Below the pieces are notes generated by a model that worked only from the letters and a program-made list of their open reading frames with translations, searched no databases and had not been told where the DNA came from. A program made the translations under genes and the position numbers. From assembly GCA_937968065.1 (NCBI GenBank), contig CALBUD010000004.1, forward strand, positions 1 through 5,308: a stretch of DNA of 5,308 nt, read 5' to 3'. The stretch is from Candidatus Iainarchaeum sp. Lineage in GTDB: Archaea > Iainarchaeota > Iainarchaeia > Iainarchaeales > CSSED10-239. Positions 1 through 5,308 of this stretch are shown one piece after another; within the stretch, counting starts at the first letter, position 1, and each line of letters starts with the position of its first letter.

Positions 1-43
1 ACTCTTATCATTTACTTCTTTAATATTTATTCTACTACAGTCG

Positions 44-187
44 TTAAAATGAAAAATATGTTTTAACTTTTTTATCAGCTTCAATTTCACTATTTTCAAT
101 TTCAATTTCATTCAATTTATTATCAACTTTATATTTGACAATAATACTCCTTTCATTCAAACGTTCATTATAAGTTACATTAAACAT
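44..187 (-). CDS. 47-aa hypothetical protein. Short paralogue sharing its first 44 aa with the 80-aa ORF 3404..3646.
   Basis: Not in the ORF track (too short). Hand translation from ATG at 187 gives MFNVTYNERLNERSIIVKYKVDNKLNEIEIENSEIEADKKVKTYFSF, with TAA at 44-46. Nt 56-187 are identical to 3515-3646, so the SD (AGAGGTGGAA, 9-nt spacer) and codons 1-44 match the second copy. The tail diverges after the repeat edge. Confidence 0.55.
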   Translation of the reverse strand: MFNVTYNERLNERSIIVKYKVDNKLNEIEIENSEIEADKKVKTYFSF

Positions 188-376
188 TTTATTTCATTCC
201 ACCTCTATTATTCTTATCCGATATAATTAGCCACATTTTCTGTGTCTTTATGTTTTTGTCTAAGTTGAATAATTTCTCTTAAAGTCATATCTTCAATATC
301 TTCAAAATCTGTCGTATTAACAACTTCGTTAATTACAATAAATCTTTTATGTTCGTGCGGTATATCCATTTTTATT
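56..376. repeat. Direct repeat, copy A (~321 bp), partner at 3515..3835
   Basis: Base-by-base comparison at constant offset 3459. Nt 56-317 are identical to 3515-3776. The mismatches are at 318, 358, 364 and 373, and similarity is lost from about 377. Nt 1-55 are unrelated to 3460-3514. Confidence 0.95.
214..369 (-). CDS. 51-aa acidic hypothetical protein (repeat copy A)
   Basis: Not in the track. Hand translation from ATG at 369 gives MDIPHEHKRFIVINEVVNTTDFEDIEDMTLREIIQLRQKHKDTENVANYIG, with TAA at 214-216. The SD is GGAGGAC, 8 nt upstream. It differs from the 3673..3828 product only at D2E and N18D. Retention of two intact copies supports coding. Confidence 0.7.
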   Translation of the reverse strand: MDIPHEHKRFIVINEVVNTTDFEDIEDMTLREIIQLRQKHKDTENVANYIG

Positions 377-485
377 TGTCCTCCATCATTTCAATACAAT
401 CTTCACAATAAAATTCTTTTTCAGAATCAATATATCTTACATCATCTGTTGATCCACAATTTATACAATCTCTTTGACATACCAC
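372..485 (-). CDS. 37-aa mini zinc-ribbon protein (CxxC-x16-CxxC), GTG start
   Basis: Not in the track. The frame opens with GTG at 485, directly after the TAA of the upstream gene (TAAGTG), with GGGGTGAG 4 nt upstream. Translation is (M)VCQRDCINCGSTDDVRYIDSEKEFYCEDCIEMMEDK, with TAA at 372-374. It occupies the same position relative to the repeat as the zinc-ribbon ORF 3831..3977. The non-ATG start and short length lower confidence. Confidence 0.45.
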   Translation of the reverse strand: MVCQRDCINCGSTDDVRYIDSEKEFYCEDCIEMMEDK

Positions 486-1109
486 TTATCTCACCCCATT
501 ATTATTTTTGTTATAAAAATATAAATTATCAAAAAAATTAAATTTATACTTTGTTATCTCATCCAATCTAATAATTTCAACAATGTCATTAGGTTGTTTT
601 TCTAAAGCTTCTTCATATTCTTCATCAGTTTCATAATACCCATAAGTAGGATAAAAATCTACATATATATTATCATTTTCAAATCGAATCTCAAAATCTT
701 GGTTTTGTTCTTCATTCATTTTGATGTAACCTCTAACTCCACAATCCCATAATATATACAAAAACAAACAAAACTCATCATACCAATATCCTTGAATCTT
801 ATGTTCATTTATATCAAAATAAATTTGATGATGTTCATCATTATAATCAGTATGATCAATTTCAATACAACTCATATAACCCTCCCATTGAATATCAATA
901 TTTTTTAAAAAACTTAAAGCACAACAATCAGGTTTAATTTTATTAACATCAATCTCAAACTTATCAATTAATTTTTTAACGATAGCACTAGCTGTTTTGG
1001 TTTTATAATAACTGGTATTAAGTATATAACATAGTAACCTTTCCACAAACGGTTTTGTTGCACAATTAAATGTAATATCATAATCAGTCAAATAACTTAC
1101 GTTTCCCAT
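486..1109 (-). CDS. 207-aa strongly acidic, aromatic-rich hypothetical protein
   Basis: Track ORF with ATG at 1109 and SD GAGGTGA (GAGGTGAAAAATG). By hand count it has about 38 D+E versus 20 K+R. I recognise no motif. Confidence 0.85.
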   Translation of the reverse strand: MGNVSYLTDYDITFNCATKPFVERLLCYILNTSYYKTKTASAIVKKLIDKFEIDVNKIKPDCCALSFLKNIDIQWEGYMSCIEIDHTDYNDEHHQIYFDINEHKIQGYWYDEFCLFLYILWDCGVRGYIKMNEEQNQDFEIRFENDNIYVDFYPTYGYYETDEEYEEALEKQPNDIVEIIRLDEITKYKFNFFDNLYFYNKNNNGVR

Positions 1110-1117
1110 TTTTCACC

Positions 1118-1840
1118 TCACACACCTTTAGCAATCAATTCTTGCATAGTAATATGTTTATTAAGTTCAGCAAACTTAGTTTCACAAAATTTCTGTTTAT
1201 GTCCACATTCATTACAAACAAACTCAGTCGAATTTTTTTTATGTTCTTCATAATGTCTTTCCCAAGCTTCATCTTGTTCTTCAATTAAGGTAGGTTCTTC
1301 ACAATAAGGGCATATATAAATTTCACTTAGATCACATTCTTCACCATTAATTTCATACCCCACAATTTCAAACTTTTCACCAAAGAAAAATCTAACATCA
1401 TCATCTGTTCCACAATCTTCATAAAATAAATTAAAATCATACCATGCCATATTATAAATATCTTCCATGTATTTGTGATCATCACTAAGATTATCAAGAT
1501 ACTCATAACATTCCAAACACAATTGTTTTTTAGTTTGACATTTATACTCTTCCGACCAAGTTTTAAAATGCGTTCTATCAATGTGATTATAAAAACAATC
1601 TTCAATATCAATATTATGTTGAGTTAAAATATCACAGAATATTATATGTTGAACATTATTAAGTTTATCGATATAATTATCAATTGCTCTATGGTCATTT
1701 TCAGGTTCTAAAAGATGTTCAACTTGTTTATCAACCCAATCAGTAACTATCCTTGGTTCATATGAACCTCTACTCAAATTAGATATAGCATCTTTCAAAT
1801 TTTCACCTTTGCCTACTCCATCATAAATTTTTATTGACAT
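1118..1840 (-). CDS. 240-aa acidic Cys-rich hypothetical protein with a C-terminal CxxC-x28-CxxC zinc-ribbon-like motif
   Basis: This is track ORF 1118..1858, but the ATG at 1858 has no SD and lies inside the upstream gene. The ATG at 1840 (MSIKIYDG...) follows GGAGGT by 10 nt and sits 4 nt after the upstream stop. The CPYC...CNEC motif lies at about nt 1205-1312. By hand count it has about 53 D+E versus 24 K+R. Confidence 0.85.
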   Translation of the reverse strand: MSIKIYDGVGKGENLKDAISNLSRGSYEPRIVTDWVDKQVEHLLEPENDHRAIDNYIDKLNNVQHIIFCDILTQHNIDIEDCFYNHIDRTHFKTWSEEYKCQTKKQLCLECYEYLDNLSDDHKYMEDIYNMAWYDFNLFYEDCGTDDDVRFFFGEKFEIVGYEINGEECDLSEIYICPYCEEPTLIEEQDEAWERHYEEHKKNSTEFVCNECGHKQKFCETKFAELNKHITMQELIAKGV

Positions 1841-1844
1841 TTTG

Positions 1845-2114
1845 TTACATACCTCCATATTTTAAAATTAAGATTATGTTATAAACTGCAACTATAATTC
1901 TAAACCCTCCTACTGCATATAAAAAATAATTAAGTAATTTATGTTTAGGTTTATTAATAGTAAATAACATCGCAAACAAAATAATATAATTAAAAATCAA
2001 AACAGCATTTAACCCAAACATATTACCTTCATCTAATCTTAAATTAATTCCAATAATTGTAGTTATCATGTCCAGAACTATTCCAAACCCTAATACATAT
2101 TCTCCCTGGATCAT
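1845..2114 (-). CDS. 89-aa small integral membrane protein (about 3 TM helices)
   Basis: This is track ORF 1845..2120, whose first codon is TTG. The ATG at 2114 (MIQGEYVLGF...) is more likely, with a weak SD (GAAGG) upstream. There are three hydrophobic stretches. The segment LDMITTIIGINLRLDEGNMF loosely recalls the D..T......G..E.N pattern of small DUF5658-type membrane proteins (from memory, unverified). Confidence 0.8.
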   Translation of the reverse strand: MIQGEYVLGFGIVLDMITTIIGINLRLDEGNMFGLNAVLIFNYIILFAMLFTINKPKHKLLNYFLYAVGGFRIIVAVYNIILILKYGGM

Positions 2115-2116
2115 TT

Positions 2117-2533
2117 TCAAACCTTCAGTGAAGTTAATTTTGAAACAAAAAACTGTTTAATTTTCTTTTCAGGGTATCTTTTAATACCTTGAGATTTAAA
2201 ATAAGTTTTTATGATTTCATTAAGTTCATTCATAGTTTGTGGTTGTATTACTGTTTCAATAACTACTTTACCTGTGTTAATATATTTTTTAATTTCGTGT
2301 GTAGTGCAGTAAAATATTTTTCTATTCCTTATTACTCTTAACACATACTCTTGATGTTTTGAAGTAGAACTACTATATTTTTCATCATTATACAACACTT
2401 CATCACCATTTAAAAAAACAGCTATAGGGAAATGTTCACCGTAAGAATAAATAACTTCGCCATCAGTAAACATTCTAGAACCTGTAGTTTTCCTACCACA
2501 AATCCATTCATTTACAACTTCTGTATGTTTCAT
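2117..2533 (-). CDS. 138-aa hypothetical protein with YSYGEHFPIA ... YSSSTSKHQ motifs
   Basis: Track ORF with ATG at 2533 and SD GAGGAGGT (9-nt spacer). The pattern G..IYSYG...IA followed by YS.STSKH resembles a conserved phage-associated family of unknown function that I cannot name with confidence. Confidence 0.85.
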   Translation of the reverse strand: MKHTEVVNEWICGRKTTGSRMFTDGEVIYSYGEHFPIAVFLNGDEVLYNDEKYSSSTSKHQEYVLRVIRNRKIFYCTTHEIKKYINTGKVVIETVIQPQTMNELNEIIKTYFKSQGIKRYPEKKIKQFFVSKLTSLKV

Positions 2534-2559
2534 TTTTAATTTACCTCCTCAATTAATAT

Positions 2560-3030
2560 TTAATTGAATTTATTTTCTAAACTTTCAATAATCTGTTTAA
2601 CTTCATTAATCATTTCTAAAGTTTTATTAGATTTTTGATTATAATTATTCATAAACTTTTTCAGTTTATTAGTAAACTTCCATAACACTAAATCTAATTC
2701 AGTTTCACAAACACTAGGATCGTTTTGTTTAATAATAATATTTTCAACCTTTTCAGGTGAAGTTTTATTATTACGTAAAGTTCTATAAATATCTGTGTGA
2801 GCAATGCCTTTTTTTGTTAATTTATTATATTGTTCGGGTTCAATTTTAATCCATAATAACCAATCTTCGATAGTGCTTTTAGGAAACCCAAACTCTGCAG
2901 CAAATTTCCTAATACTGAGATTATTTTGTTCCATATACTGTTTAATAAGTTTGGCTTTATCAAACTGCGATACTTCTTTTTTTCTTAAATCACAAATCCA
3001 GTTATGTAAAATATCTTTACTTAAATCCAT
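2560..3030 (-). CDS. 156-aa helix-turn-helix DNA-binding protein (ParB-type HTH pattern, no ParB N-terminal domain)
   Basis: Track ORF with ATG at 3030 and SD AAGGAGGT. Residues 38-85 (LSIRKFAAEFGFPKSTIEDWLLWIKIEPEQYNKLTKKGIAHTDIYRTL) fit the ParB/Spo0J-style HTH layout: L[ST]....A...G.s.stv...l.l..lpe.v...v..g.is..ha..L. Confidence 0.85.
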   Translation of the reverse strand: MDLSKDILHNWICDLRKKEVSQFDKAKLIKQYMEQNNLSIRKFAAEFGFPKSTIEDWLLWIKIEPEQYNKLTKKGIAHTDIYRTLRNNKTSPEKVENIIIKQNDPSVCETELDLVLWKFTNKLKKFMNNYNQKSNKTLEMINEVKQIIESLENKFN

Positions 3031-3033
3031 TTT

Positions 3034-3255
3034 TCATACCTCCTTAAATTTAATTCGATTATTTATCTTTTGATATTTACAATATAATAAAATACAATCT
3101 TGTTCTTCATAAAACCCATTTATTTTTTTATATGTTTTAGTAAAAACTTGGTCTATTTCATTAGATTTATATTCTTTGCAAATATCCTTTACTACTTTTA
3201 TTGATGATGAATGTTCTTCATCACCATTAGTAAAACTGATTGTGTGTTCTTTCAT
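3034..3255 (-). CDS. 73-aa hypothetical protein
   Basis: Track ORF with ATG at 3255 and SD GAGGAGGTGG (GAGGAGGTGGAAGAATG). The stop TGA at 3034-3036 lies inside the SD region of the next gene. Confidence 0.8.
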   Translation of the reverse strand: MKEHTISFTNGDEEHSSSIKVVKDICKEYKSNEIDQVFTKTYKKINGFYEEQDCILLYCKYQKINNRIKFKEV

Positions 3256-3383
3256 TCTTCCACCTCCTCAATTAATCCCCTCATCTTAACCCATTTATTA
3301 TTTTCATTATCAAACCATTTTAATTCTACAACTGATTCTTTCATACTAATATATTCCATATTCAAAACTTCTACTTTATTCAT
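3252..3383 (-). CDS. 43-aa hypothetical micro-protein
   Basis: Not in the track. Hand translation from ATG at 3383 gives MNKVEVLNMEYISMKESVVELKWFDNENNKWVKMRGLIEEVEE. The SD is GGAGGT with an 8-nt spacer. The stop TGA overlaps the ATG of 3034..3255 (ATGA at 3252-3255). It fills an otherwise non-coding 148-nt gap in a gap-free operon. Confidence 0.55.
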   Translation of the reverse strand: MNKVEVLNMEYISMKESVVELKWFDNENNKWVKMRGLIEEVEE

Positions 3384-3403
3384 CTTCTTCTACCTCCATT
3401 TTT

Positions 3404-3646
3404 TTAATAAAGACTGATAAAATAAGTTATTTTAATAAACACATATTTTTCTTTATATTGATATTCAACAATTTTTTTAATATAATTTCTAAATTGTATC
3501 TGATTTTGTTTAATATATGTTTTAACTTTTTTATCAGCTTCAATTTCACTATTTTCAATTTCAATTTCATTCAATTTATTATCAACTTTATATTTGACAA
3601 TAATACTCCTTTCATTCAAACGTTCATTATAAGTTACATTAAACAT
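3404..3646 (-). CDS. 80-aa hypothetical protein, the long paralogue of 44..187
   Basis: Track ORF with ATG at 3646 and SD AGAGGTGGAA. Codons 1-44 lie inside repeat copy B. The unique tail is IKQNQIQFRNYIKKIVEYQYKEKYVFIKITYFISLY. Confidence 0.7.
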   Translation of the reverse strand: MFNVTYNERLNERSIIVKYKVDNKLNEIEIENSEIEADKKVKTYIKQNQIQFRNYIKKIVEYQYKEKYVFIKITYFISLY

Positions 3647-3835
3647 TTTATTTCATTCCACCTCTATTATTCTTATCCGATATAATTAGCCACATTTTCT
3701 GTGTCTTTATGTTTTTGTCTAAGTTGAATAATTTCTCTTAAAGTCATATCTTCAATATCTTCAAAATCTGTCGTATCAACAACTTCGTTAATTACAATAA
3801 ATCTTTTATGTTCGTGTGGTATTTCCATTTTCATT
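3515..3835. repeat. Direct repeat, copy B (~321 bp), partner at 56..376
   Basis: See copy A. Nt 3515-3776 are identical to 56-317, with mismatches at 3777, 3817, 3823 and 3832. Confidence 0.95.
3673..3828 (-). CDS. 51-aa acidic hypothetical protein (repeat copy B)
   Basis: Not in the track. Hand translation from ATG at 3828 gives MEIPHEHKRFIVINEVVDTTDFEDIEDMTLREIIQLRQKHKDTENVANYIG, with TAA at 3673-3675. The SD is GGGGTGA. By hand count it has about 12 D+E versus 6 K+R. Confidence 0.7.
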   Translation of the reverse strand: MEIPHEHKRFIVINEVVDTTDFEDIEDMTLREIIQLRQKHKDTENVANYIG

Positions 3836-3977
3836 CACCCCATTTTAATGTTGTAACTAATTCATTACATTGTGGACATCTTATTAAATCTCTGTTGCTA
3901 AAATCTTCATAATCTTCTGGAAGATTAAAATTATTTTTGCATTCTGGACATTTTTCTCTTATTTGAATATTTTTCAT
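3831..3977 (-). CDS. 48-aa mini zinc-ribbon protein (CPEC-x20-CPQC)
   Basis: Not in the track. Hand translation from ATG at 3977 gives MKNIQIREKCPECKNNFNLPEDYEDFSNRDLIRCPQCNELVTTLKWGE, with TGA at 3831-3833. It has a very strong SD (GAGGAGGAACAATG). The start overlaps the stop of the upstream ORF (ATGA). Confidence 0.7.
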   Translation of the reverse strand: MKNIQIREKCPECKNNFNLPEDYEDFSNRDLIRCPQCNELVTTLKWGE

Positions 3978-4096
3978 TGTTCCTCCTCTTCACACACAGA
4001 TCTAACTTCTTCATAACTTAAATCTAATAATTCAGCAGTTTTAAAATAGTTCTGCGTTAGTTCTTGTGTTTCTTTAATTCTTTGGTTTAAATTCAT
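3974..4096 (-). CDS. 40-aa hypothetical micro-protein with an acidic tail
   Basis: Not in the track. Hand translation from ATG at 4096 gives MNLNQRIKETQELTQNYFKTAELLDLSYEEVRSVCEEEEQ. The SD is GGGAGAGGGA. The TGA at 3974-3976 overlaps the ATG of 3831..3977. The segment TAELLDLSYEEVRS weakly resembles a minimal HTH, which is not enough for a call. Confidence 0.55.
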   Translation of the reverse strand: MNLNQRIKETQELTQNYFKTAELLDLSYEEVRSVCEEEEQ

Positions 4097-4099
4097 TTT

Positions 4100-4411
4100 T
4101 CACATCCCTCTCCCAGTCATTTTGATTATAATAAAATAATCATCTTGTTGTTCTAATTGGTCTATGTATAACATAATATATTTGTTTTTACGTTGTTTAA
4201 GTATATGTTCAATTACTTGATGGTCAGTCCAACCTAAACAATTTAACCCTTCAAAAATCTCTTCACAATATTCTTTAAATTCAAGTTTTTTAAATTTAGT
4301 TTGTTCAGGTAAATTATATTGAAACAATCTAAACAACTCAGTTTTAGTTGTATGTTCAAACATAAATTCTACAGCATTGTTATGGTAATATATTTTTGGT
4401 TCAATTATCAT
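4100..4411 (-). CDS. 103-aa hypothetical protein
   Basis: Track ORF with ATG at 4411 and SD GAGGAGGT (GAGGAGGTAAATAAAAAATG). I recognise no motif. Confidence 0.85.
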   Translation of the reverse strand: MIIEPKIYYHNNAVEFMFEHTTKTELFRLFQYNLPEQTKFKKLEFKEYCEEIFEGLNCLGWTDHQVIEHILKQRKNKYIMLYIDQLEQQDDYFIIIKMTGRGM

Positions 4412-4426
4412 TTTTTATTTACCTCC

Positions 4427-4741
4427 TCAATTTAATCTTTCAACATATTTAATATTTTTATCATGGTTAATATTATCATATTGAAGACAAGCACAATATT
4501 TATTATCACTATTAAGCAAATTTATATGTTTATCAAACGAATAATCAAACAATTCACATTCAAATTTACATTCTTGTTCATCAACCACTATCCCTGAAGC
4601 TTTTAAAATTGTTGATGGTATAAAATATAACATAAATAATAAATATGTTATACCAAATATAATTGCAAAATATCTAATAATTTTATCAATAGTTGAGTCT
4701 TTTTTTATTTTTTTATCAAGTGCGTATTCTGTTATTTTCAT
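4427..4741 (-). CDS. 104-aa single-pass membrane protein with a C-terminal C-x3-C-x20-C-x-C domain, paralogue of 4745..5002
   Basis: Track ORF with ATG at 4741 and SD AAGGAGGA. It has a K-rich N-terminus, then a hydrophobic helix (YFAIIFGITYLLFMLYFIP), then ECKFECELFDYSFDK...NKYCAC...KYVERLN. Confidence 0.85.
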   Translation of the reverse strand: MKITEYALDKKIKKDSTIDKIIRYFAIIFGITYLLFMLYFIPSTILKASGIVVDEQECKFECELFDYSFDKHINLLNSDNKYCACLQYDNINHDKNIKYVERLN

Positions 4742-4744
4742 TTT

Positions 4745-5002
4745 TCAATCCTCCTTATTTTTATTCAGTCTAATATATGTAACATAACCCTTTTGGTCCA
4801 TACAAATACAACCTTCATAATTATTACTTTTAATAAATTGATAACCATTTTTTATACATTCAATTTCACATTCAAGTTCATAATCGGGTTCACTTTGCAG
4901 TTCAGATAAATATGTTATAAAACCAAAAAAACTTAAAAGAACTCCCACCAGTATTAAACAAATTACCAAGTGCATGGTAAAATCACCTTTTTTATGTTTC
5001 AT
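4745..5002 (-). CDS. 85-aa single-pass membrane protein with a C-terminal C-x3-C-x15-C-x-C domain, paralogue of 4427..4741
   Basis: Track ORF with ATG at 5002 and SD AAAGGTGA. It has a basic N-terminus (MKHKKGD), then a helix (HLVICLILVGVLLSFFGFITYL), then ECEIECIKNGYQFIK...YEGCIC...TYIRLN. Confidence 0.85.
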   Translation of the reverse strand: MKHKKGDFTMHLVICLILVGVLLSFFGFITYLSELQSEPDYELECEIECIKNGYQFIKSNNYEGCICMDQKGYVTYIRLNKNKED

Positions 5003-5016
5003 TTCTAATCACCTTT

Positions 5017-5253
5017 TTATTTTTTATAAAATTTTCCATTATGAACCCATTCGTGGATTTCATTATGTTCTTCATCAGATAACATTTTTATATCACTTTC
5101 TTCAACATAATGAAATTCTAAACTAACATACCTTATATTAGTATCTTCATTTTCAATTACTGTTAAATTTATAGGTTTATTATTAATAACAATTTCTACA
5201 TTATAATACTTAGTTGTAGAAAATACTTCTTTATCAATTAATCTAATTACCAT
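5017..5253 (-). CDS. 78-aa acidic hypothetical protein
   Basis: Track ORF with ATG at 5253 and SD GAGGAGGTGA (GAGGAGGTGAAAAAGAATG). Confidence 0.8.
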   Translation of the reverse strand: MVIRLIDKEVFSTTKYYNVEIVINNKPINLTVIENEDTNIRYVSLEFHYVEESDIKMLSDEEHNEIHEWVHNGKFYKK

Positions 5254-5308
5254 TCTTTTTCACCTCCTCAAATTCAATACTTTTTTTAACAGGTCCTAAA
5301 GGTTCACC
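5243..5308 (-). CDS. 3' end of an upstream gene running off the right edge (partial, last 21 codons)
   Basis: This is the only minus-strand frame open at the window edge. It reads ...GEPLGPVKKSIEFEEVKKNGN, with TAG at 5243-5245, and overlaps the next start by 11 nt. The other two minus frames hit stops within 12 nt of the edge. There is too little sequence to judge coding quality. Confidence 0.4.
   Translation of the reverse strand, partial: GEPLGPVKKSIEFEEVKKNGN

Follow-up and report, generated by a model that had tools for sequence, protein, structure and literature searches.

A near-identical 321-bp direct repeat of a two-gene ORFan module in a putatively phage-like metagenome contig: gene-block shuffling or assembly effect?

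The genomes of lambdoid phages and mycobacteriophages are reportedly mosaic, and the work of Hendrix, Juhala, Hatfull et al. is said to describe a shuffling of modules whose breakpoints coincide with gene borders, accompanied by gain and loss of small accessory genes. In lambdoid phages, short conserved boundary sequences, or "linkers", have been proposed to lie between gene modules. Repeats also leave their mark on metagenome assembly, as a collapsed repeat edge of a de Bruijn graph can be traversed twice, strain bubbles are popped, and contigs end k nucleotides into a shared vertex; the usual final k of SPAdes-type assemblers is 55. Deletions between short repeats in T7 and T4, together with deletions of non-essential regions in SPP1, are the classic cases of repeat-associated instability in phages. 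In the SPP1 genome, the non-essential regions have been defined by deletions (PMC6316719).

The locus described here touches on each of these systems. The window, which is the whole 5308-bp metagenome contig, contains a direct repeat whose two copies are referred to as A and B (Table 1). A base-by-base comparison aligns nt 56–376 with nt 3515–3835 over 321 bp without gaps, at an offset of 3459, and reproduces exactly the repeat length, the 262 bp of identity (56–317 versus 3515–3776) and the four mismatch positions (318, 358, 364 and 373) of the original prediction. The unrelated outer flank and the single-copy state of everything else, both claimed in that prediction, also hold. Similarity is gone from 377/3836 onward and from 55/3514 downward, barring two chance matches at positions 53–54, and there is no significant similarity between window proteins besides the repeat pair, so that the remainder of the window is single-copy. 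The same pair was recovered by a repeat search of the window (family D1). When the window was simulated 100 times under a first-order Markov model, the longest exact repeat reached 17 bp (mean 14); the two copies share one orientation and lie far above this chance level, as expected for a dispersed duplication. Outside the repeat, the contig extends 55 nt beyond one copy and 1473 nt beyond the other. The mismatches are confined to 59 of the 321 bp, a clustering with P = 0.0011 under a uniform spread, and the spacings between them, and from the outermost to the border, are 39, 5, 8 and 3 nt.

Every gene of the window is located on the minus strand. The repeat unit is a two-gene ORFan module made up of a 51/53-aa gene and, after a 26-nt spacer, the first 44 codons of an 80-aa gene, which is the gene content that had been assigned to it. 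Relative to copy A, the 51-aa protein of copy B carries D2E and N18D (copy-A numbering), and the copy-B 53-aa gene starts within an ATGA, sharing bases with the TGA stop of the 48-aa gene. The truncated 47-aa form of the second gene has been seen in the present contig only. Comparison with the relative L001, introduced below, gives a pN/pS of 0.06–0.22 in the 51-aa gene and of 0 in the 80-aa gene (few sites), showing purifying selection on both module genes, which appear to be real genes. Single-sequence AlphaFold predictions were uninformative for the 53-aa protein (pLDDT 56) and for the 80-aa protein (one long helix, pTM 0.36). The 51-aa protein has two remote homologues over its full length (L004 and L005); their genes are single-copy and lie on short contigs among unrelated neighbours. 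The 51-aa protein was also considered as a free-standing C-terminal part of the 138-aa protein, a relationship rejected at an hhalign probability of 0.4%.

The eight ORFs predicted between the copies (372..3383) were found as described. Among their products, the 240/246-aa protein has a zinc-ribbon-like C-terminus, the 91-aa protein is a membrane protein, and the 156-aa protein gives a weak HTH match; the 48-aa gene adjoining copy B is a zinc-ribbon gene. The N-terminal domain of the 138-aa protein has matches to phrog_7247 (E = 8e-18), to hypothetical proteins from many phages and to 27 IMG/VR contigs. This one domain match supports the assignment of the contig as phage-like. Searches of Pfam, PHROGs, PADLOC and NCBIfam left the repeat genes and the block without an assigned function, apart from the weak HTH, the zinc-ribbon signatures and phrog_7247, while Rfam, tRNA and terminator scans were empty. 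The possibility that the 37-aa and 48-aa zinc-ribbon genes are diverged parts of a larger, older repeat was rejected, there being no detectable similarity between them.

Table 1. Coordinates of the repeat, its genes and the surrounding features in the 5308-bp window.
Feature	Position (nt)	Strand	Remarks
Unique tail past copy A, ends contig	1..55	-	no match anywhere
Truncated 47-aa version of 80-aa gene after copy A	44..187	-	44 shared codons, then FSF and stop
Repeat copy A, 321 bp, downstream in transcription direction	56..376	-	after 207-aa and 37-aa genes
262-bp identical core	56..317 (= 3515-3776)	-	L001 differs at 4 sites (1.5%)
51-aa ORFan gene, copy A, MDIPHEHKRF...	214..369	-	complete
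59-bp variable 5' part of unit	318..376	-	4 differences from 3777-3835
37-aa CxxC...CxxC zinc-ribbon ORF, GTG start	372..485	-	absent from L001
Five-gene block common to L001, 93.5% identity	486..3030	-	207, 240/246, 91, 138, 156 aa
73-aa and 43-aa ORFan genes	3034..3383	-	other genes at corresponding L001 positions
Intact 80-aa gene after copy B	3404..3646	-	identical protein in L001
Repeat copy B, 321 bp, upstream copy	3515..3835	-	directly after 48-aa zinc-ribbon gene; runs into intact 80-aa gene
51/53-aa gene, copy B	3673..3834	-	53 aa from ATG 3834, 51 aa from ATG 3828
Junction 16-mer GGTGAATGAAAATGGA, 48-aa gene / copy B border	3824..3839	-	
Upstream flank, six small co-directional ORFan genes	3831..5253	-	78, 85, 104, 103, 40, 48 aa

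The sole close relative in any database searched is the Logan contig L001 (3130 bp), which has one module copy, an intact 80-aa gene and a different gene after it, and demonstrates that the unduplicated state exists in relatives. In L001 the module immediately follows five of the genes that, in the window, are among the eight between the copies, which is the position of copy A, and a 214-aa gene abuts the repeat unit without an intervening 37-aa gene. The window and L001 have breakpoints at two start codons, those of the 156-aa gene and of the gene that follows the 80-aa gene, and in the surroundings of the 37-aa gene; none falls at the repeat borders. Among L001, L002 and L003, gene starts recur as mosaic breakpoints, and the relatives differ by whole-gene replacements and indels with borders at start codons.

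The two-copy arrangement is known from the present contig only. The phage relatives that the original prediction had looked to did not appear when the whole window was compared by megablast and blastn with 50,697 phage records, as there was no match. An exact search for a repeat 35-mer in IMG/VR, JGI metagenomes and GTDB genomes also gave no matches, and searches with the back-translated 53-aa, 246-aa and 51-aa family alignment returned no relatives from collections of viruses, metagenomes and genomes. When the 53-aa, 80-aa and 240-aa sequences were used in word-indexed protein searches, only the present contig and L001 were matched. Look-ups of window proteins by exact sequence gave neither the source contig nor a Logan contig from the same sample. 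In total, two protein collections (~15 billion proteins, searched as 5.8 billion clusters and 1.84 billion representatives) and three contig collections yielded no further module carrier, and neither the repeat around different cargo nor an empty site was found in any relative or collection searched.

The two parts of the repeat unit have different relationships to L001. Copies A and B are the same throughout the 262-bp part, where L001 departs from both. In the variable 59 bp, A and B differ at 4 sites, A and L001 at 3, and B and L001 at 3, with L001 mixing A-type and B-type bases, so that in this part the two copies appear to diverge about as much as separate strains. The recent duplication that had been proposed is consequently not supported for the whole unit, since the 59-bp part stands at L001-level divergence (4 versus 3 sites); homogenisation is confined to the 262-bp part. 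This identity points either to a recent crossover or conversion, or to a single de Bruijn edge that was walked twice.

It is somewhat probable, in our judgement, that the repeat is a dispersed direct duplicate of a two-gene module in a mosaic, phage-like array, with the placement of both copies on a single molecule being the step that we infer. The setting would be a tightly packed, single-strand ORFan array in the mosaic phage-like genome of a low-GC host. Copy A occupies the single-copy site of L001, downstream of the 156-138-91-240-207-aa block, and its second gene is short of the final 36 codons, having lost them at a junction that enters unrelated DNA. Copy B, 3.1 kb upstream, is the complete one, placed after the zinc-ribbon gene and followed by the 43-aa and 73-aa genes that L001 lacks. 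Most likely, related genomes in which the module had different contexts would have recombined, or the module would have been inserted as a copy; subsequently, a crossover or a gene-conversion tract would have homogenised the 3' 262 bp, and the 5' 59 bp would have kept their strain-level divergence. In the contig, a unique and continuous path links copy B through the eight genes to copy A and, unless this path is chimeric, any linear molecule with these genes would have the repeat on both sides.

A duplicate of this kind would fit tailed-phage mosaicism, in which a module in two contexts is an expected by-product of exchange. The small co-directional ORFans and the exchange borders of relatives at start codons are shared with that system; the difference is that both contexts occur here in one contig, as a direct repeat of 321 bp whose 262-bp core is perfect. 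The repeat would have no dedicated function, and its consequence would be passive. As 262 identical bases provide ample homology for recombination, the copies would form a substrate for homologous deletion or amplification. Recombination between them would remove 3459 bp, comprising the eight genes and the 3' part of the only intact 80-aa gene (just this part, because the first 44 codons lie inside the repeat), and unequal exchange in concatemers would amplify the same stretch. The likeness to phage direct-repeat deletions lies in co-oriented homologous stretches that flank non-core genes and in the predicted exact 3459-bp loss or amplification; unlike in those cases, the instability of the region is here inferred, as is an origin of the arrangement by recombination. 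A perfect 262-bp direct repeat should be recombinationally unstable in a phage, so that it must be either very young, under protective selection, or not real.

The last of these options corresponds to the principal alternative, a possible though clearly less probable one, according to which each genome has the module once and mosaic strains were threaded into one path via the shared 262-bp edge. For example, a strain with 48-aa gene/module/80-aa gene/43/73... could have been joined to a strain with ...207/37/module/tail, with threading possibly also through shared stretches of the five-gene block, and the perfect identity of the core would then exist by construction. Several features of the contig are in keeping with this. 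The contig tail beyond copy A measures exactly 55 nt, as does the lead before the first ATG (5253), and a contig that ends exactly 55 nt past a repeat could owe the perfect identity to assembly. All four mismatches lie at most 59 nt from one border with gaps of at most 39 nt, so that no 55-mer is common to A and B in the variable part and the mismatches would belong to branches rather than to the shared edge. Such a pattern would be expected from a k=55 de Bruijn graph of a strain mixture with the core edge used twice. Furthermore, a strain with the block, then a single module, then an intact 80-aa gene really exists in L001, whose k=31 assembly crosses the module unbroken, indicating that the module has a single context there.

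Against threading, unique sequence runs without a break from copy B to copy A, and for a chimera the block would therefore have to conceal a second join, unless a 3459-bp circle were involved. The assembler halted at both outer branch points, suggesting that unresolved branches were not crossed lightly, and where copy A meets the tail a tidy short ORF results, with a stop 3 codons further on. The likeness to de Bruijn repeat handling, namely an identical core longer than a k of 55, differences only where no such k-mer is shared, and both contig ends 55 nt from a junction or gene start, is also compatible with a true repeat that was correctly resolved.

The original prediction also proposed that the repeat may act as a module-exchange linker and that the eight genes may be a cargo cassette gained, lost or swapped through it. 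A functional or habitual linker of this kind is improbable. The region is clearly mosaic among relatives, and the core is long enough for recombination by established knowledge. However, in L001 the unit is single and five of the eight cargo genes are nevertheless present immediately upstream, so that the presence or absence of cargo does not track the repeat and the cargo is not an insert into an empty single-copy site. The exchange borders, in what are very few relatives, lie at start codons and around the 37-aa gene, some with a short SD-start motif, rather than at the repeat; none of these relatives shows an empty site or two copies that enclose other cargo, and the two remote 51-aa homologues are single with unrelated neighbours. 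The closest likeness to the lambdoid linkers is instead a 14–16-nt SD/stop/start motif (GGTGAATGAAAATGGA), present at three module borders in the window and L001, including, as the 16-mer, the L001 border upstream of the 156-aa gene. It is this motif, and not the 321-bp repeat, that sits at exchange points, and it may merely reflect common translation-start signals. A more elaborate version, in which the two-gene module, perhaps with the SD-start motif, would be a portable homology handle by which a phage population reversibly drops, regains or amplifies the 3.1-kb block, the contig being the "loaded" state of an on/off cassette, is slightly more doubtful still.

Least probable is a tandemly amplified or circular unit with a 3459-bp period (80C-43-73-block-37-module), of which the contig would hold one unit plus host junctions: the block, module and intact 80-aa gene of L001 follow each other as expected at a unit-to-unit joint, but L001 is not such a joint, as its genes before the 156-aa and after the 80-aa gene differ from the 73-aa and 43-aa genes, and additionally just 321 bp of the period is repeated, 1–55 and 3836–5308 are unrelated to the unit, and the unit has no replication or recombinase gene. 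A direct terminal repeat or circular-permutation overlap was rejected, given the sequence that lies outside both copies and the 321 of 3459 bp that repeat. A transposon was rejected on the basis of no transposase or recombinase family match, no inverted repeats at the unit ends, and unit borders at a start codon and in the middle of a gene, as was an integron attC/att cassette system, with no integrase in the window, no Rfam matches, and 321 bp of coding sequence in place of a short site.

The repeat has the look of ordinary gene-block shuffling, or possibly of an assembly effect, rather than of a special exchange device, and it matters little beyond the present contig. A practical caution is that a perfect repeat in a short metagenome contig that ends one k-mer past the junction calls for a read check before biology is drawn from it. 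The module itself is a very rare ORFan gene pair, found in two assemblies only among the ~15 billion proteins searched. If the repeat is real, it would be another case in which the shuffling of small modules leaves dispersed repeats that destabilise the accessory regions of phages.

Compared base by base at a 3459-nt offset, the two copies share 262 identical bases (56–317 and 3515–3776). The only remaining mismatches through 376/3835 fall at 318, 358, 364 and 373, and similarity stops at 377/3836 and, at the opposite border, at 55/3514. An automated repeat search of the window recovers the same pair, confirming that the coordinates and mismatches in the original prediction were exact. The longest exact repeat obtained by simulation is 17 bp (100 first-order Markov simulations of the window), and comparing the window's 18 ORF products with one another revealed no other significant paralogy. 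The window has a G+C content of 25%, and all convincing ORFs lie on the minus strand, densely packed, with GGAGG-type ribosome-binding sites and common stop/start overlaps. One boundary of the repeat lies where the 51-aa gene begins, at its ribosome-binding site and start codon, and the other falls after codon 44 of the gene downstream, which continues to 80 aa in copy B and ends as FSF-stop (47 aa) in copy A.

Features of the window in order of transcription, followed by aligned segments and sites in related contigs
Feature	Window position	Strand	Position in relative
Stretch before the ATG (5253) of the first complete gene	5254–5308		
78-aa gene		−	
85-aa gene	4745–5002	−	
104-aa gene	4427–4741	−	
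103-aa, 40-aa genes		−	
48-aa zinc-ribbon gene, segment compared with gene X	3831–3890	−	
16-mer, 48-aa gene/copy B border	3824–3839	−	
Copy B: 53/51-aa gene, spacer, first 44 codons of the 80-aa gene	3515–3835	−	
43-aa, 73-aa, 156-aa genes		−	
138-aa gene	2117–2533	−	
91-aa, 240/246-aa, 207-aa genes		−	
37-aa ORF	372–485	−	
Copy A: 51-aa gene, spacer, first 44 codons of the 47-aa ORF	56–376	−	
55-nt tail	1–55		
Short DNA repeat in the 104-aa and 85-aa genes	4553–4580, 4853–4880		
Segment shared with L001, five-gene block	3033–496		L001 59–2599
Segment shared with L001, module	3852–3379		L001 2587–3060
Segment compared with L002	4092–4545		
Gene X (partial)			L001 1–58
16-mer upstream of the 156-aa gene			L001 51–66
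14/16 version of the 16-mer, 214-aa/51-aa gene border			L001 2600–2615
51-aa and 138-aa homologues			L005 3–474

The one close relative, L001, was reached via a cluster look-up and is a Logan contig of 3130 bp belonging to run SRR24908268. It matches the window at 93.5% across the 156-, 138-, 91-, 240- and 207-aa genes, and at 97%, gapless, across a segment spanning the junction, the 51-aa gene, the spacer, the whole 80-aa gene and the next intergenic region. The order in L001 is X, the five-gene block, a single module with an intact 80-aa gene, and Y, where X and Y differ from the 73-aa and 43-aa genes of the window. This arrangement establishes that a single-copy state of the module exists, that the lone module occupies the place of copy A, downstream of the block, and that the 47-aa form is a truncation of the gene that is intact in the 80-aa form. 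The borders of homology between the two contigs coincide with start codons. On the left flank, two further relatives, L003 and L002 (the latter sharing its run with L001), likewise differ from the window by whole-gene indels or replacements at gene borders. In L002 (1231 bp), extra 71- and 102-aa genes lie between the 104- and 103-aa homologues, and AT-rich non-coding DNA follows the 103-aa gene in place of the 40-aa gene; these differences are further mosaicism at gene borders. The 37-aa ORF, a CxxC...CxxC reading frame with a GTG start between the 207-aa gene and copy A, has no counterpart in L001, was uncalled by gene callers (it is not among the protein-collection entries), and appears to be an indel of a small gene at a gene border.

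Divergence between the copies is uneven. The 262-bp core is the same in A and B, with L001 departing from both at 4 sites (1.5%). The 59-bp 5′ part holds 4 differences between A and B; here L001 is 3 sites away from each and mixes A-type and B-type bases. Assuming an even spread over 321 bp, the probability of all 4 differences falling within one 59-bp end is 0.0011. The five-gene block is 6.5% diverged from L001, with 1–16 mismatches per 100 bp along its length and a longest identical run of 134 bp. Recent duplication or ongoing gene conversion had been proposed; because the differences cluster in the 59-bp part, the copies do not resemble a single fresh 321-bp duplication. Judged from these substitutions, the 5′ ends look like two strain-level alleles, and the remainder looks homogenised, through the assembler or through a tract of crossover or conversion with its end near 318.

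We lean towards reading the repeat as a two-gene module of a mosaic phage-like genome that is present as a dispersed direct duplicate. Its probable source is recombination between genomes carrying the module in different contexts, or copying of the module to a second gene border. Later exchange would then have homogenised the 262 bp, and copy A would have been cut short through a deletion or an illegitimate join.

A less likely alternative is that the repeat was constructed during assembly from strains that occur together. Exactly 55 nt separate the repeat border from one end of the contig, and exactly 55 nt lie between the other end and the ATG of the first complete gene. SPAdes-type assemblers usually finish at k = 55, and when a contig in their graphs stops at a vertex that it has in common with another strain, it runs on for exactly k bases after the junction; this suggests that both ends are k=55 vertices common to other strains in the sample. 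Intervals of 39, 5 and 8 nt separate the four A/B differences, and the border follows after another 3 nt, so the copies have no common 55-mer until position 317. A k=55 graph would consequently represent the core as one edge that is traversed twice, in which any internal differences could have been merged, making both the perfect identity and the one-molecule structure provisional. Neither the 55-nt ends nor the spacing of the differences is a demonstration of misassembly. Between copy B and copy A the contig runs uninterrupted through the eight genes. Barring a chimeric path or a circular unit, a linear molecule with these genes must therefore carry the repeat on either side of them.

The original prediction suggested that the eight genes between the copies may be a gained or losable cargo cassette. 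This is very improbable, as the single copy in L001 already lies downstream of the block, indicating that the block is not an insert into an empty site. The repeat was also predicted to act as a module-exchange linker, a class to which it does not belong on a membership test against a very small sample of relatives. A tandem or circular 3459-bp unit is scarcely credible given that the neighbours in L001 differ and the window flanks are non-periodic. Candidate assignments as a terminal repeat, a transposon or an integron-type cassette were each rejected on the same type of test.

The borders of the module have also been compared. The exact 16-mer GGTGAATGAAAATGGA at the border of the 48-aa gene and copy B consists of an SD-like element, the TGA stop of the upstream gene and a ATGAAAATGG start. 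With the identical and 14/16 versions in L001, the motif is found at three module borders in two genomes, and the five-gene block of L001 is bracketed by the 14-nt direct repeat GAATGAAAATGGAT. The 16-mer may represent microhomology for gene-border exchange or merely a common translation-start context. In L001, gene X precedes the 156-aa gene and ends in CYECNGKGYIDYRGE (also given as RDNCYECNGKGYIDYRGE) before its stop, and the 48-aa zinc-ribbon protein ends in CPQCNELVTTLKWGE; both have equal CxxCN-to-stop spacing and terminate in GE-stop. Nucleotide similarity upstream of the motif is 20/50, which is not above background. X may be the positional counterpart of the 48-aa gene, a lead drawn from these termini. 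If so, the window would have an extra 802-bp piece relative to L001 (3034–3835), that spans copy B, what remains of the 80-aa gene, and the 43- and 73-aa genes, with the zinc-ribbon gene on one side and the 156-aa gene on the other.

The window is a very rare ORFan gene neighbourhood. It is one complete short contig deposited in NCBI/ENA, as the protein collection places its proteins on a single contig of 5308 bp, exactly the window length. Phage records contain nothing similar at the DNA level, an exact 35-mer of the repeat has no match in IMG/VR, JGI metagenomes or GTDB genomes, and protein-guided scans of these collections returned no carriers of the 51-aa gene. In a word-indexed search of 5.8 billion clusters, the 53- and 80-aa queries match only the contig's own proteins, the sole additional match to the 80-aa protein being the truncated 47-aa form. 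An exhaustive HMMER pass over 1.84 billion representatives identified two remote full-length 51-aa homologues (35–45% identity), both single-copy on contigs of ~1 kb with unrelated downstream genes. In the contig L005 (ENA ERZ23498361, 764 bp), a 51-aa homologue lies directly downstream of a 138-aa homologue (42% identity to the window protein, with the motif YSSSTSKHQ.YV in both), whereas the two genes are ~1.7 kb apart in the window.

Searches of Pfam, PHROG, PADLOC and NCBIfam returned no family that accounts for either the block or the two genes of the repeat. Weak HTH matches occur in the 156-aa protein, and the 37-, 48- and 246-aa proteins carry zinc-ribbon signatures. The N-terminal ~80 residues of the 138-aa protein match phrog_7247 (E = 8e-18), a domain present in 27 IMG/VR contigs and in hypothetical proteins of Gordonia, Pseudomonas, Brevundimonas, Rhizobium and other phages; these matches are the main support for a phage origin. 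This domain spans phages of very different hosts, and every other window gene is an ORFan. The 104- and 85-aa genes, next to each other, encode small membrane proteins with a common Cys/Glu-rich motif (ECKFECE vs ELECEIECI) and share a short DNA repeat; they may be old tandem paralogues, with a blastp E of only 0.027. Relative to L001, pN/pS is 0.06–0.22 for the 51-aa gene and 0 for the 80-aa gene, from few sites; with few or no amino-acid changes, these genes are the best conserved of the region. Single-sequence structure models were uninformative, and scans found no RNA family, tRNA or terminator.

The putative repeat would be another instance of a known, ordinary kind. It works like the direct repeats behind phage-genome deletions and resembles by-products of modular exchange in mosaic phages. 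On balance, the repeat has no function of its own and its effect is passive. Since 262 identical bases far exceed the homology required for recombination, a precise 3459-bp deletion, or amplification in concatemers, would be expected.
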